A stretch of DNA of 64,000 nt, from the NCBI RefSeq assembly GCF_022045235.1, contig NW_027266286.1, forward strand, positions 51,522,001 through 51,586,000, written 5' to 3'. How positions within the stretch are numbered: the stretch's first letter is position 1; every line of letters begins with the position of its first letter. The notes beneath the pieces were generated by a model, which searched no databases, was not told where the DNA came from, and was given only the letters and a program-made list of their open reading frames with translations. Source of the DNA: Haliotis cracherodii (taxonomy: Eukaryota). A program made the translations under genes and the position numbers. Below, one piece after another: positions 750 to 6,683 of this stretch.

Positions 750-949
750 ATTGGCCCGTTCCGGTGTCTGGTCTGAGTCTCCATTTTTCCAAACTGGACC
801 GACCCTTGTGTTTCTTTTCCATAGGGTTAGGCTTGTAGCATGAGAGAGAAAGCACAACCTCGGTTCGACCAATCAGAGCCCACCATGGCTCGAGCACGGC
901 CTCTGATTGGTCGACAACCCAGGCTTCGGATTGGTCAGATTTCGATCCG
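750..949 (-). promoter_or_regulatory. Repeated Polinton promoter module, copy A (CCAAT boxes, AAACACA)
   Basis: The reverse complement matches 6370-6570 closely (GGATCGAAATC..ACCAATCCGAAGCCTGGGTT.TCGACCAATCAGA...GTTGTGCTTTCTCTC...CTATGGAAAAGAAACACAAGGGTCGGTCC). AAACACA reads as TGTGTTT at 807-813. Confidence 0.8.
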
Positions 950-1005
950 TTTTTTTCTGTAGGGGTCCATGTCGATTCAGTTTCGATCCCCTGTCATGAA
1001 AAAAT

Positions 1006-4000
1006 TTATAGAAAGTCGTCTCTGTACCCAAAGGGGAGCGTGTCTACAGGTAGGCCTGTGGTTTCGTCGTAGACGACACGTCGCTTGTCGTACACGGTAC
1101 GATAGTCTTTTCGGGTGGGGCGGGTCACGAGTGCGTTTTCGTGCCGAGGTCCTTTTCGAATGATCTGATGAGGGTAATCCAAACTGATTTTCTCCTCCTC
1201 CTCTTTCCCAGACCGTTGTCCCAGTATCAGTCCTTTCATGGTGTCAAAGTTGAGATGGCGTTGGTTTCGGTAATTCAAAGTGAACCCTCGCACTTTGCAG
1301 GTCGTGCGCGTTCCATCGGGTCTGGGGTTCATTAACTCATAGCCATAGTTTTTGGGGCCTCCTGACACAAACGTCTTGATGGTGTTTCCGTCCAGTTCAT
1401 CCGTAAACTCACCCAACGAATGATCCAGCTCTGGATTCGCGTCGTGGGGTCGATGAATGTAAATGATGCTGTCCGTGTCAAAGTACAAGACCCTGCAGTC
1501 CACCAGGGCAAGGGTCTCGTACAGCTTGAGACGTGCTTGGGCGGTGACCCAAGCAGCGATGGCGACATTGAAATGAGAATGAGGGGTTTGGAATTCTTTC
1601 TGCTGGGTATAGGTCACTTCCACCATGTGTTCGTTGACAACGGTCACATCCTCGATGGTATTGCGTTCATCCCTCCACAAGGCAAAGTACTGTACAGGAT
1701 CGTTCATATAAACGTTCTGACTGTAGTCTACCCGTTGCCCAAACTTGCCCCAGAGCGAATTCAGTTGCATCTTGGCAATCGTGCGACGTCCTGGATTTTT
1801 TCGATGCGGTCCTTGTCCAACCTAATGCCTTCTTTGTCGTAGATCTCCTGGATGTAAGCGTCGTGATCCGTACATCCTTCGGGGTATCCGCTGGCTTCGA
1901 GCTTCTCCTTGAAATGTCTATCGATGTAAGTGTCAAAGAGTCCCACTTGCTGGGTGTCGGGGTCATGCTGTGCAAAGGTGTCAAAATGCCAAACGTCGTA
2001 GATCTGAAGCACCCGGTAGTCATACTTCTTCACGGCTTCCTGGAGTTCTACGGTGGCGTACGTCCCCACCCATGACATCTCTTCGTCCGTGTGCTCGCTT
2101 CGGCACACGTACGTCACAAAGGACAGAGCAGTTTGCCACCCGATCTGTAAGGCAGTAGCGGATGGTAGAGTCGCTTCGGGGGTAGGACACGGCATTGGAT
2201 CAGGCCTTTCAGTTCAAACAACGTGTCCACAGGGGGTTGATGGAGAAGGGTCGGGTGTCCCGTGGGAAACGCTTCGGTCTTACAAATGTAGGGATAAAGG
2301 GAACAAATATCGATGTACTTGATGGTTTCACCTTCTTGGGCTTCGTAGCATAATCGCGTGGCATTGGTGCGTCCTCCATAGAAGGCGTCGCGAGGGTTGA
2401 GCGGCCCAGGGACGTGACTACAGTGGGGTCCCTGCAAGAAAGCACGCACAGCGGAGTCCTCCCGTTGCATTTTCGTAAACTCGTGCTCCCACAGGGTGAC
2501 GATCCGTTTCACCTCAGGGTGTTGACTCAAGAGACTCAAGCGGTAGTGGGTGTCGGTGTAACGGGCTCCCAACGACGAGCCCAGGACGGGATGCGGTTCT
2601 CCACGTTGGGTCTTGTGACAGACCTGGCACCCATGCCAGAAACAGCCCAGGAATTCGTAGATGGTCCCTGTCGCTGGATCGTACCCATCCATCTGTACCG
2701 ATGTTGGCCCTCTCCACACGTGAACTCTTTTTCACCGCCATTCCTGGCGTGCTGGAGGTGTAGATGGGGGTCCGTTTCCATCAGATAGTGGAGCCAGTGC
2801 ATACAGGCCTGGGAATAGTTTCTCTTGGGTTGGTAGCCTTGAGGTGGAAGAATGGCGATGGTATTGGGTTTCAGGTCGTGTTTTCGGAAGGATTTTATGG
2901 TGAACGCTGCAGCTGTCATCACTTCCACAAAGGGATCCATACCCACCGAGTGGATGGCGTTCTGTCGGAAGTCGGCGCATCCGCGTCTCAAAATGTCCAC
3001 ATCGCTCTGGCAGTAAGCTAAAAGTTAACCTTGTAAGTCGAACAAGGCTCCTTCTTGCACTTTTTGGGTATGCCACTGGAGGAAGGCTGTGCGTTCCGTG
3101 GGAGACATGCCATCGGGATCGTACGTGACGGCTGGTGGATAGGGACCTCTGTAGGTCTGGTTGACTCTCGTATTGAAAAAGTGTGGAAAGTACCCTTTCT
3201 TCATTTCTTTCAACCCAGAGCTCTTGGGAAAGGCTTTCAGGGGGTAAGGGATGAAATTTAAGCTGTCTTTGAAACACAACCGTCCCAGGGTCATCTGCAA
3301 AATTTGTCGGCCATGTCGAATCTTGGTGGGGAGTGTCACCAGGAGGGGGGACAGGCCCTTCAGGATTAAGTGTAAATCATAGGATCGTGCATTGTGGGCC
3401 ATCACATAAATGCGATCCTCCTTCGGGACTGTATGGCGGGGGGTGTTCTTGTTCTTTGGCTTCTTTGTTTTCTCCACTTCCATGACCTCTTCCACCTCCT
3501 CCGCCTCCTGCTGGGGTGATGCATGTCGTTGACGTTTGGAAGCGTACTTTCTTGAGGGGGTGCCATCCCGTTTTCTTTTTTTCCCCAGGTGGGCTGTTGT
3601 CCCCTTGCGTGTGCTGCCCTCCTCTTCCTCTGGGTTGGGCTTCTTCTTGGGTATTTCAGACAACGTGGTCAACCACACACACACATCATGTCGCGTGGTG
3701 GGGCCTCGAAACATGATCTCACGGCTGGGACCATACCCTTCTTCTCTCCATGGACAGTGTTCGCACAAGTTCTTGCTCACTTCACTGATGCATCGTCCAC
3801 ATCCTAGTTGCACAACGCACAAATTTGGAATGTGTTCCCCCGTGTCTTGCATGCATTCAAAATCGTAGAAGACGTATTGGACGTCGTCTTGTACGTGATG
3901 TTGTTCCTCTTCCCCCTCCTTCTCCGCTTCCTCTCCCTCCTCCTCCTCCTCCTCCTCCTCCTCGTTTTCTTCACGGAGAGGCGTCATGTAACAGCGATGA

Positions 4001-5214
4001 TCTGGGGTCATGGGTTCTCGGCACACCAAGCAGGGATGTTCTTCGTCGAAGCACTCGTGGTGAACCATGGGGGCCTCCAAGACGCGGACCAGCTGAAAAC
4101 AGTTCGGGCACCTGTGAATCGATTGACAGGCGCTGGGTTTTCCCTCTGACGGTGACTGGAGATGTCGGGTGTAACACGTTGGATTGGGGAACCAACCTTG
4201 ACATGTCAAGCAAGGGATCCCGTGCTCTTCCTGGGGTCTGCAATAACTAGAGTAGAAGCAGCGGTGACAGCGGTATTCCTTGGTGCAGGGATGTTTTTCG
4301 GGATGGTCGTAACGTTTGTCGCAGCGTTCGCAGTAATGGTTAGAGCCATAAAAAGCGGACATGGAAGTGATGACATCGTAGTGCTGATCATGATGATATA
4401 AATACAGCACCGTGGCGTGAGGTTGAGCCTCATCACACTTGTACAACAGTCTCTGACCCACCTCTTGACTGTAGACTTTCAGTTGATAATGCAGGTGGGT
4501 CAAGGCCCGCCCCACGCGTGCGAGGTCGTCCAGGCCTTGACAGGGACCTTCAGGCAGGCCAAAGCGTCGAAACAAGGCCCGTGCCTGTATGCCTTGAACG
4601 TCGACGCGATCCGTTCTCGTCAGTCTCATTCGCCGGGCGGACCATGCTGGGGTCAGAGGATGGGGTTTGTGGGCATAATGTTGTGCCACCACCAGGGCCC
4701 GTGCCAAACAAGATTGATCTTCGTTCTTGATCCGTACGATGCACTTTTTGCGTGTTAAAAAAGCTTCGAGTCCAATCACGTTTTTCAGCTGGGGAGCACC
4801 ACTGTCCGATCCTAGCCTGTCGGGATCTGCGACGTGTACTAAAGTCACATCCATGGTGGCATCGATGTTCAGGTCTTTGTTGGACTGTTGGACTTTTTCC
4901 ACGGCCTGCAAAATATTTAGCCCATGGAGATCTTCAAAACGTCGAAAGGGAATCCGTATGGGGGTGTTCAAAGCGGGATGATCGATACCTAGACCAATAC
5001 GATCTCCCTTCTGACCTGACATCTGTTCATAAAAGTCATCGATCACCCTGTCAATTAAAGCTGGCAGTTCCATGGGGACGCGTTCCGGTGGTACGGTGTC
5101 CAAGTAGTCTGGGTTGAAAGTCAAACGATAGGTATGATTAGCAGTTCTTAACCGTCTGGAGCGGGTGGTATCTTTCCTCTCCAAACGATAGGGCGTACTT
5201 TGGTTGCTCGTCAT
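1006..5214 (-). pseudogene. Protein-primed family B DNA polymerase (Polinton pPolB), disrupted
   Basis: Motifs: exonuclease YDFE, AHNARSYD, YCQSDV; polymerase YIDICSLYP, KMQLNSLWGKFGQ, YFDTDS, GGPKNYGY, KVRGF. Lesions: in-frame TAA at 3025-3027 (LQG*LLAYCQSDV), frameshift near 2695, TGA at 2114-2116, frameshift near 2100, one missing A near 1798. Confidence 0.95.
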
Positions 5215-5295
5215 GATAGCGATGTGTGTCTGATGAACGCCTGTACTCTAAGAGGGTCTGAACGTCTGATGGATGGACAACCCTTCCCCAAAACA

Positions 5296-6065: not shown

Positions 6066-6125
6066 GAGGACGTTTCCCGTGTCCTGCGTTCCCGTTCAAG
6101 TTCCCGTTCAAGTTCCTGTTAATAC

Positions 6126-6160
6126 GGCCCTTTTGAGGGCCACCCATCTCACCCAAAAGA
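6126..6160 (+). terminator. Histone-type 3' stem-loop plus downstream element
   Basis: GGCCCT-TTTG-AGGGCC (6126-6141), ACCCA (6142-6146), AAAAGA (6155-6160); begins about 60 nt after the BIR ORF stop. Confidence 0.85.
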
Positions 6161-6369
6161 CAACTTTCCTCCTTTGCTTTACCAACCCAAACAACAATCC
6201 AAAACAAAGAACCCACATGACATTCCGATTGGCATGGGAGTGACACACACGTACATCACGTAGGCATTCCCACGTTCATGTCTACCTATGAAGGTCCACC
6301 TTCCTTTAGCATTCAGACGACCGTCTACCTACAAAAAAATACCAAGGCTACCCAAGAAGAAATAAACCC

Positions 6370-6683
6370 GGATCGAAATCGGACCAATCCGAAGCCTGGG
6401 TTATCGACCAATCAGAAGCCGCGCTCGGGCCATGGCGGTCTCTGATTGGCCGAACCGGGGTTGTGCTTTCTCTCCCATGGTAAAATCCATTTCCTATGGA
6501 AAAGAAACACAGGGGTCGGTCCGCTTTGGAAAACCGAGGTGCTGGCCAGGCACCGGAACGAACCAATCGGGGCTGCGGCCTGGGGAACCAACCAAGAAGC
6601 AGGGTGTCAGTACCTCTCCTATAAAACAACAGTGGATTCGAATGGATCAGTGTCACTTGTAAAATTTATTCGAAAAATCAAGA
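6370..6683 (+). promoter_or_regulatory. Repeated promoter module, copy C
   Basis: CCAAT at 6384, 6408 and 6563; ATTGG at 6445; AAACACA 6505-6511; TATAAAA 6620-6626; Inr-like TCAGT 6647-6651. Confidence 0.85.

Follow-up and report, generated by a model that had tools for sequence, protein, structure and literature searches.

In the 64-kb window (the whole stretch of DNA that was analysed), we found the larger part of one segment from a Polinton family. This family probably consists of two separately inserted halves that have the same ends and likely complement each other in trans. A module repeated in the window is likely the two-way RNA polymerase II promoter of the family, copied before several genes on both halves. 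The complete element here, a copy of segment A, is 11,096 bp long, and the stretch holds two thirds of it. The preliminary description took it for the arm of a Polinton. We rejected an arm of a longer element, since the left terminus and the target duplication were found upstream of the window: this is a complete 11.1-kb segment with pPolB only. The features are as follows.

L031:7649-7911, minus strand: module D, a fourth copy just upstream of the window
3-506, minus strand: ORF167, orphan accessory gene with no Pfam match, no stem-loop and no directly upstream module
949-749, minus strand: module A, with CCAAT at 934, 910 and 754, ATTGG at 873, a dyad at 806-857 and no TATA
1006-5214, minus strand: pPolB, protein-primed DNA polymerase B (PF03175)
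5290-5612, plus strand: module B, between the divergent pPolB and BIR1, with CCAAT at 5310, 5334, 5355, 5485 and 5524 and CATAAAA at 5548
5383-5434: imperfect dyad of module B, AAGCACA (minus strand) facing AAACACA (plus strand)
5613-6065, plus strand: BIR1, inhibitor-of-apoptosis domain protein of 150 aa (PF00653, E 4.8e-19)
6121-6166, plus strand: histone 3' stem-loop after BIR1 (RF00032, 31.2 bits, E 6.9e-06, below the gathering score of 34)
6364-6683, plus strand: module C, with CCAAT at 6384, 6408 and 6563, ATTGG at 6445, a dyad at 6461-6511, TATAAAA at 6620 and TCAGT at 6647
6684-7007, plus strand: ORF107, Cys-rich orphan accessory gene with no Pfam match (dN/dS 0.11-0.36 in 9 of 9 comparisons)
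7013-7058, plus strand: histone 3' stem-loop after ORF107, with downstream element (RF00032, 35.6 bits, E 1.4e-07)
7014-7446: right terminal inverted repeat, ending in an inverted AGTAGT tip, common to the integrase/capsid segment; it mirrors the left end of the element at L031:6351-6876
7447-7452: 6-bp target-site duplication GCCGTT, with its second copy before the left end at L031:6345-6350

The pPolB of this copy is broken into five ORF pieces; in other A copies it is a single frame of 1415-1420 aa. The counterparts of ORF167 in other copies are 155-160 aa long.

Besides pPolB and orphans, segment A (~11-12 kb) has two BIR genes and a zinc-knuckle gene. Segment B (~10.3 kb) ends in the same termini and lacks pPolB; its genes encode an integrase with rve and chromo domains, a Pox_A32 ATPase, a double jelly roll capsid (0.97) and a Peptidase_C5 protease (0.97). 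A further gene without a Pfam match presumably encodes the minor capsid protein, a label given from its position. Of the Polinton genes, pPolB is found on segment A only, and the ATPase, major capsid and protease on segment B. Using tblastn, we showed that all seven B proteins are absent from 10 of 10 A copies and that pPolB is absent from 7 of 7 end-mapped B copies. Polintons have AG tips and make 6-bp duplications; terminal inverted repeats with AG tips and a 6-bp duplication were found on both segments (the duplication in all 10 A copies and in 7 of 8 B copies). A 45-nt tip variant is identical between one A copy and one B copy. Like the segments of a segmented virus, A and B have matching ends and complementary sets of genes.

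From 94 exact matches we built 43 terminus pairs, none longer than 12 kb. Pairs with pPolB (A) numbered 27, pairs with the integrase (B) 8, pairs with neither 8 and pairs with both 0. The eight gene-poor elements use the same ends, so common tips are not enough to make an element a genome segment. Among the matches listed, which are lower bounds (candidates scored: 149 of 321 for pPolB, 116 of 302 for capsid, 150 of 1902 for integrase), 0 of 118 pPolB hits with at least 76% identity have an integrase or capsid hit of the family within 15 kb, and at 65-75% identity 4 of 18 do. Entering this count were 144 of the 150 pPolB hits listed (second pieces from a single locus were dropped), and 59 of 150 listed integrase and 72 of 127 listed capsid hits, with distant families (below ~45% identity) and second pieces left out. 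One assembly was examined, and an undivided helper may exist in other individuals or as a free virus. As weak tests for a free form, the stem-loop cassette gave 0 matches in the viral_contigs collection, and a capsid query gave one weak hit of 22 residues in metagenome_contigs.

Old decayed copies are undivided and hold the module, pPolB, ATPase, integrase and minor capsid gene in one piece. Both hallmark genes stand on one element in such copies only, and in no young copy. Segment A retains collinear relics of the intergenic DNA of segment B, and in the pPolB tree the old undivided copies lie outside the A clade (94/94). In the integrase tree, read without a clade test, the old copies are not basal; its long branches make this tree uninformative. 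Older A-type copies (L161-L164) still carry the ATPase, which indicates that the split was stepwise. In a young A copy (L154), a foreign integrase and ATPase stand within an insert, and an N-terminal fragment of pPolB was located 3.5 kb beyond an older B copy. In both segments dS is mostly 0.00-0.02. The dN/dS ratio is below 1 in 16 of 16 comparisons for pPolB, 6 of 6 for the capsid and 7 of the 8 with dS > 0 for the integrase, and above 1 in 9 of 10 for the zinc-knuckle gene; these comparisons use one common reference and are not independent.

The three module copies reported in the preliminary description are in the window, with four to five boxes each (three CCAAT and one ATTGG in A and in C, five CCAAT in B). 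As reported, each of the three modules has one copy of the invariant CTATGGAAAAGAAACACA, and the 64 kb contain no others; the ATGs follow the start of AAACACA by 186 nt (B) and 179 nt (C); the TATAAAA of copy C precedes TCAGT, the A of which is at 6649; and module B starts ~80 nt from the divergent pPolB ATG at 5214. The word "triplicated" suits the window but not the element, since 10 of 10 pPolB-type copies have four module cores. Segment B carries half a module. The module was also said to stand next to every gene. It turned out that the second BIR gene and ORF178 have none, nor do 6 of 8 ORFs scored on segment B. Module A lies after the pPolB stop and before ORF167, ending ~240 nt before the ATG at 506. 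At positions 1-7500 there are five cluster starts with at least four CCAAT in 250 nt; on shuffles, 0 of 500 reach five, and one or more cluster starts appear in 66 of 500. Elsewhere, the window has two unrelated clusters of 4-5 boxes (34421 and 55541). Therefore, a single cluster is unremarkable, and the three module copies, being duplicates, do not count as independent events. Conservation does not extend to the inverted ATTGG box (4 of 16 clusters).

Conservation, rather than box clustering, is the real support for the module. Across 22 variant clusters, CCAAT and TATA positions average 0.955, AAACACA 0.974 and other non-CpG positions 0.781; AAACACA is intact in 18 of the 22. The conserved block is wider than the 7-mer: it is a 50-nt dyad with arms at 0.926. 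AAACACA is one arm of it, and so pPolB and the BIR gene each have such a heptamer ~180 nt upstream (in module B, AAGCACA 176 nt before the pPolB ATG and AAACACA facing BIR1). Judging by these patterns, the module resembles a Pol II promoter that works both ways and is under selection. That the dyad acts as a hairpin found no support: z of the DNA fold is below -2 in one of five copies (-3.85 in B, and -1.1 to -1.5 in A, C and D). In five loci of Polinton families that are more distant we found neither module nor stem-loop; the ends of these elements may fall outside the stretches searched.

Histone-type 3' stem-loops follow BIR1, ORF107, the zinc-knuckle gene and a small ORF of segment B. The stem after BIR1 (6126-6141) has an AAAGA downstream element at host spacing, and the 16-nt stem-loop of ORF107 is identical to that of a host tandem H1 gene. 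The downstream purine element has an offset of 13 in the Polinton element and 12-14 in host histones. The stem is of the host H1 type (both H1 genes with a stem-loop), not of the core-histone type (4 of 4). All 12 fetched RF00032 hits outside histone arrays match the stem-loop cassette of this Polinton family. No stem-loop was found within 450 nt of the pPolB stop. Thus, the reported co-occurrence of the heptamer with 3' stem-loops holds for the genes on the TATA side and not for pPolB. Contigs of related organisms, from four presumed-RNA runs compared with window 1-7500 and from four runs compared with segment B, show both segments; these contigs also span promoter DNA and pass the first stem-loop, and so are no guide to starts, ends or levels.

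The H1 box has the sequence AAACACA, and vertebrate H1 promoters have the order H1 box, CCAAT, TATA. A literature search with AAACACA and "H1 box" found no paper. We compared the module with the histone promoters of the host. Of 6 host H1 promoters examined, 5 have AA[AG]CACA between -157 and -179, counted from the ATG; in the modules it stands at -163 to -186 (-176 for pPolB, via the dyad). The modules thus carry an H1-box-like heptamer at an H1-like distance, but inside a wider dyad and farther from TATA: the spacing is 115-121 nt in the modules; both motifs were scored in two host H1 promoters, where it is 85 and 88 nt. Only one of 55 alignments between a module and a host promoter beat all 100 shuffles (score 27, a piece of an H3 cap site). 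Among the upstream regions of host H1, H2B and H4 genes, most pairs score 27-54 through a common 19-nt element. This H4-box-like element is present in 8 of 11 host upstream regions, including 6 of 6 of H1, and was not found in either segment at up to five mismatches. Short words common to module and host (GGATCGAAA with H2A/H2B and a CCAAT 11-mer with H3) are not above shuffles.

We suggest the following mechanism. By gene content, segment A would need the integrase of segment B to insert, and segment B would need the polymerase of segment A to replicate; if particles form, both would use the capsid of segment B. The dyad of two AA[AG]CACA heptamers has CCAAT boxes, the predicted NF-Y sites of the module, on either side. 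The TATA side of the module would drive the small accessory genes and its TATA-less side pPolB. The host SLBP/U7 machinery would cut the accessory transcripts at the H1-type stem-loop, so that dividing cells, oocytes or embryos would be where these messages build up. Through its half-module, segment B may be timed together with segment A. More tentatively, and with less than even chances, this could be a bipartite integrating mollusc polintovirus: two obligately complementing dsDNA segments with satellites, copied and packaged together, with genes timed via the host histone programme by a doubled H1 box and NF-Y two-way promoter on both segments and by SLBP/U7 3' ends on anti-apoptotic and accessory mRNAs.

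Segments A and B may instead be ordinary non-autonomous deletion derivatives with no mutual dependence, the helper being an undivided copy missing from the assembly or another Polinton family. Polintons without capsid or without polB are known (PMC4028283; 10.1101/2025.02.07.637071), the gene-poor elements with the same ends (8 pairs) also move, and the search counts are lower bounds. Other undivided families are present in the genome (integrase ~47% or less identical) and could be helpers. Nevertheless, both halves have open genes under purifying selection and were recently amplified, their gene sets are reciprocal, tip variants are common to both, none of the 43 terminus pairs holds both sets, and every undivided member of the family that was found is old and decayed. 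We therefore regard simple deletion derivatives as improbable, and retain two complementing halves.

The origin of the module is a separate matter. Descent from a host histone H1 promoter, with the H1 box co-regulating polymerase and accessory genes in S phase, would agree with the strongly conserved heptamer equally far from the ATG in modules and host, with the H1-type stem-loop and with twin CCAAT boxes 24 nt apart that also occur in a host H3 promoter. We rejected it on the 54 of 55 non-significant alignments; the missing H4-box-like element of all six host H1 promoters, the ~30-nt difference in heptamer-to-TATA spacing, the conserved block wider than a 7-mer, pPolB without a stem-loop and the host H1 promoters mostly without proximal CCAAT boxes also speak against it. 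Descent, which the preliminary description had proposed, thus lacks support from alignment and from the H4-box-like element, and we consider it very unlikely. The module may instead mimic a histone promoter, as the preliminary description also proposed; for the histone likeness as a whole, a captured 3' cassette with converged motifs seems more likely than promoter descent. The module may also be a generic constitutive NF-Y/TATA promoter, or the dyad a DNA-level signal (recombination, template switching, packaging), the 5' histone likeness being a coincidence. Motifs such as CCAAT and TATA occur widely, a 7-mer from an A-rich block says little, the module is missing from two other Polinton families, and modules stand at rearrangement points (L155 and palindromic gene-poor elements). 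Against this, the ATG distance is fixed, TATA comes with an initiator-like motif, modules B, C, D and E are paired with stem-loops, and the dyad folds better than shuffles in copy B only. This reading is a real but minority possibility; it touches the promoter only and is compatible with a split genome.

Like the Polintons/Mavericks (PMC4028283, PMC8502044), the family has pPolB, rve integrase, packaging ATPase, jelly-roll capsid, adenain-like protease, terminal inverted repeats and IAP-type accessory genes. It differs in having pPolB and integrase on two separate elements in all young copies, and in the histone-type 3' ends and repeated promoter cassette. Gene-lacking Polintons were described before: nine elements without MCP, PRO and ATPase (PMC4028283), and polB-less polintons in Pieris mannii with coexisting complete relatives (10.1101/2025.02.07.637071). 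They too miss one module and are apparently still mobile; here, in contrast, each half has lost what the other keeps, and the search turned up no complete young copy. Bidnaviruses and the Drosophila Vesanto virus (PMC8502044, PMC8363768) also have segmented pPolB-bearing genomes with matching terminal repeats, but are ssDNA and parvovirus-like. In the present family each segment has an insertion of its own, with a separate target duplication, and instead of the parvovirus-like capsid, NS1 and ssDNA genome without integrase of Bidnaviridae we found a double-jelly-roll capsid gene and an integrase. Replication-dependent histone genes have a stem-loop with downstream element, an H1 box and an H4 box (PMC6027317). 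The Polinton genes resemble them in intronless-looking short ORFs, the stem-loop with AAAGA at host spacing, and AA[AG]CACA ~160-190 nt before the ATG with CCAAT and TATA; they differ in encoding non-histone proteins, in the absent H4-box-like element, in the heptamer doubled as a dyad with wider spacing to TATA, and in having no alignable promoter homology. In the partly accessible literature we found no description of a bipartite, trans-complementing Polinton, although supplements or Repbase entries could hold a split family, and no case of a polinton/Maverick with a histone stem-loop or of SLBP/U7 acting on a non-histone virus or transposon.

Polintons are defined by polymerase and integrase on one element. 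In at least one survey, all five core genes had to lie within 20 kb (10.1101/2023.08.22.554363); such a filter would miss a split family. We have moderate confidence in the main reading of two complementing halves with a two-way promoter; the split genome and the 3' cassette matter more than the promoter alone. With a histone 3' end on non-histone genes, this virus-like element allows a direct test of whether mobile DNA times its expression through SLBP/U7. One genome holds the undivided ancestor, intermediates, both halves and gene-poor satellites, and this record shows how a segmented genome can arise in a lineage linked to the segmented bidnaviruses.

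The Polinton in the window (G000:C23:51522001 onwards) begins 3,650 nt upstream of the window start, as the upstream extension shows, and measures 11,096 bp with the target duplication GCCGTT. It carries the protein-primed DNA polymerase B gene pPolB (broken in this copy), two inhibitor-of-apoptosis domain (BIR) genes, a zf-CCHC (zinc-knuckle) gene as well as three orphans. These 11,096 bp are without an integrase, ATPase, capsid or protease gene. This plan, which we call segment A, is common to nine further copies picked by an open pPolB frame, and four module cores and three stem-loops per copy were present in 10/10. 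The following features lie in the window:

749-949, minus strand: copy A of the module, a repeated CCAAT/TATA/AAACACA promoter-like unit
5290-5612, plus strand: module copy B
6364-6683, plus strand: module copy C
7250-7400: variable tandem array in the terminal repeat, its units ~39 nt long and bearing CCGGAAAC and GCCATCTT motifs
7527-11744, 19459-22833 and 56346-59620: a different repeated element, present three times, with long ORFs (825, 384 and 653 aa)
62108-64000: tandem array of 37-nt units, up to the last base of the window

We take CCGGAAAC and GCCATCTT to resemble ETS and YY1 sites, and the ~39-nt array is possibly a terminal enhancer or origin. The long-ORF element and the 37-nt array have no relation to the Polinton finding.

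Spacer and end sequence of the window's element recur 15-19 kb upstream of the window in a capsid/protease fragment. Its relatives in the genome are elements of 8.3-10.6 kb, called segment B. They encode an ATPase, two orphans, an rve + chromo integrase (closest named relative in Haliotis asinina, 65%), a double-jelly-roll capsid, an adenain-like protease and a likely minor capsid; pPolB was found on none of them. Both segments have the same tips and a common terminal repeat of ~500-550 bp (85-92% identity). They also share tip variants, one identical over 45 nt, and 7/8 segment B copies have 6-bp target duplications. The upstream fragment, L032:900-5800, is itself a truncated segment B copy (capsid and protease side), and leucine-rich-looking ORFs lie in the DNA beside it.

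An exact terminus pattern gave 94 matches forming 43 pairs, the longest 11.96 kb, which enclosed pPolB in 27 cases, integrase in 8, neither in 8 and both in 0. Eight matches were unpaired; they include three checked copies of A or B type and a young A copy into which foreign DNA has inserted. Among the matches listed, judged by coordinates, an integrase or capsid of the family stood within 15 kb of 0/118 pPolB matches at >=76% identity and of 4/18 older pPolB matches, and pPolB stood near 0/22 integrase matches at >=90% identity. This count took in 144/150 listed pPolB, 59/150 integrase and 72/127 capsid matches, leaving out second pieces of one place and, for integrase and capsid, distant families (<~45% identity). 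In the young A copy just mentioned, L154:2795-6659 (G000:C1:41917000-41926999), the insert is ~5.6 kb long and comes from another family; it contains a distant integrase (35%), an inverted piece of integrase and an ATPase (32%). The tips of segments A and B recur on eight gene-poor elements of 5.5-9.9 kb (L145-L152, e.g. G000:C7:14789550-14799500), with a 6-bp duplication in 7/8. The majority form near-perfect palindromes that include a module fragment, segment B's small ORF and a stem-loop; they are likely satellites or defective forms.

The preliminary description placed a triplicated module next to every gene. Recounting in the window confirmed its three copies, their CCAAT boxes, the invariant 18-mer and the ATG distances. 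That description goes too far in two respects: there is a fourth copy, D, before the window starts, and several of the element's genes are without a module. Copy A lacks TATA. Module E, the 3' half, stands on segment B between the small ORF and the divergent ATPase. A lone CCAAT cluster is not unusual (66/500 shuffles yield one, and two more occur elsewhere in the window), while the number observed was reached in 0/500. The 115 module copies fall into 22 clusters (90% identity), and in these CCAAT box 1 was intact in 12/14, box 2 in 13/15 and box 4 in 19/21 clusters, AAACACA in 18/22, ATAAAA in 8/9 and the inverted ATTGG in just 4/16. CCAAT/TATA positions averaged 0.955 vs 0.781 for other non-CpG positions (p ~1e-7; positions not independent). 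Since many clusters are a single decayed copy and local alignment favours conserved cores, this conservation is suggestive of selection rather than proof. An imperfect dyad has AAACACA as one arm and, facing pPolB 176 nt before its ATG, AAGCACA as the other; whole arms are conserved at 0.926. The module is very probably a working promoter; NF-Y would bind its CCAAT boxes, and it would transcribe both ways. In L155 (G000:C12:40462300-40472299), an 8-kb segment A derivative, the whole other arm is replaced by module C, the accessory gene ORF107 and the stem-loop of ORF107, which points to recombination between modules.

The module had also been proposed to derive from or mimic a histone promoter. 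We compared it with one core-histone unit and with H1 genes of the host, namely five variants plus a tandem array that contains 5S-like repeats. Descent is very unlikely: 1/55 alignments to host histone promoters exceeded all shuffles, a 19-nt element common to 8/11 host histone upstream regions is absent from segments A and B, and the heptamer-TATA spacing is unlike that of host H1 promoters. In favour of H1 mimicry, AA[AG]CACA lies at -157 to -179 in 5/6 host H1 promoters, a distance like that of the module heptamer, and the 3' stem-loop of the Polinton belongs to the H1 type of this host, its downstream element keeping the spacing of host histone genes. H1-box function of the heptamer is possible, though rather doubtful. 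The 19-nt element presumably resembles the H4 box of H1.0. That box is described for H1.0 in PMC6027317. At ~370 kb from the window (L034, G000:C23:50.93-51.15 Mb and C39), H1 genes of the host stand in a 3.0-kb tandem array, separate from the core histones, whose array is on C37; the H1 promoter of this tandem array lacks CCAAT, TATA and exact AAACACA. By eye, we took its unit also to hold a 5S rRNA gene.

Only genes to which the TATA side of module B, C, D or E points are followed by stem-loops, and none was found after pPolB or segment B core genes. All 12 fetched RF00032 matches outside the H1 arrays fit the family's stem-loop cassette. Histone-type 3' processing of these transcripts is likely, and SLBP/U7 would act at the stem-loop. 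Expression would be timed to dividing cells, a prediction from sequence that we hold at slightly under even chances.

Polintons without capsid (PMC4028283) or without polB (10.1101/2025.02.07.637071) and segmented bidnaviruses (PMC8502044; PMC8363768) are already described. Neither a reciprocally split Polinton nor one with histone 3' ends was found in the literature searched, with most subscription papers, Repbase and supplements outside the search.

Old decayed copies retain both gene sets, either as module, pPolB, ATPase, ORF320, integrase and minor capsid, all on the same strand, or as pPolB, module, ORF322, integrase and capsids. Intermediate A-type copies still have the ATPase on board, and segment A keeps short relics of segment B's intergenic DNA in segment B's order. 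A pPolB tree built from 12 single aligned pieces, its outgroup being two distant members of the family, put the three undivided copies outside the segment A clade (94/94); the integrase tree gave them no clear placement. A more distant undivided Polinton (L082+L083+L091, G000:C4:10.263-10.293 Mb; pPolB 40-54%) has PC4 and BIR genes and lacks the module and stem-loops. Copies of both segments have multiplied recently, dS being mostly 0.00-0.02, with dN/dS <1 in 16/16 pPolB, 6/6 capsid and 7/8 integrase comparisons and >1 in 9/10 for the zinc-knuckle gene (reference, the window copy). Segments A and B would thus have arisen from an undivided ancestor by reciprocal gene loss, after which the two halves would, quite probably, complement each other in trans.
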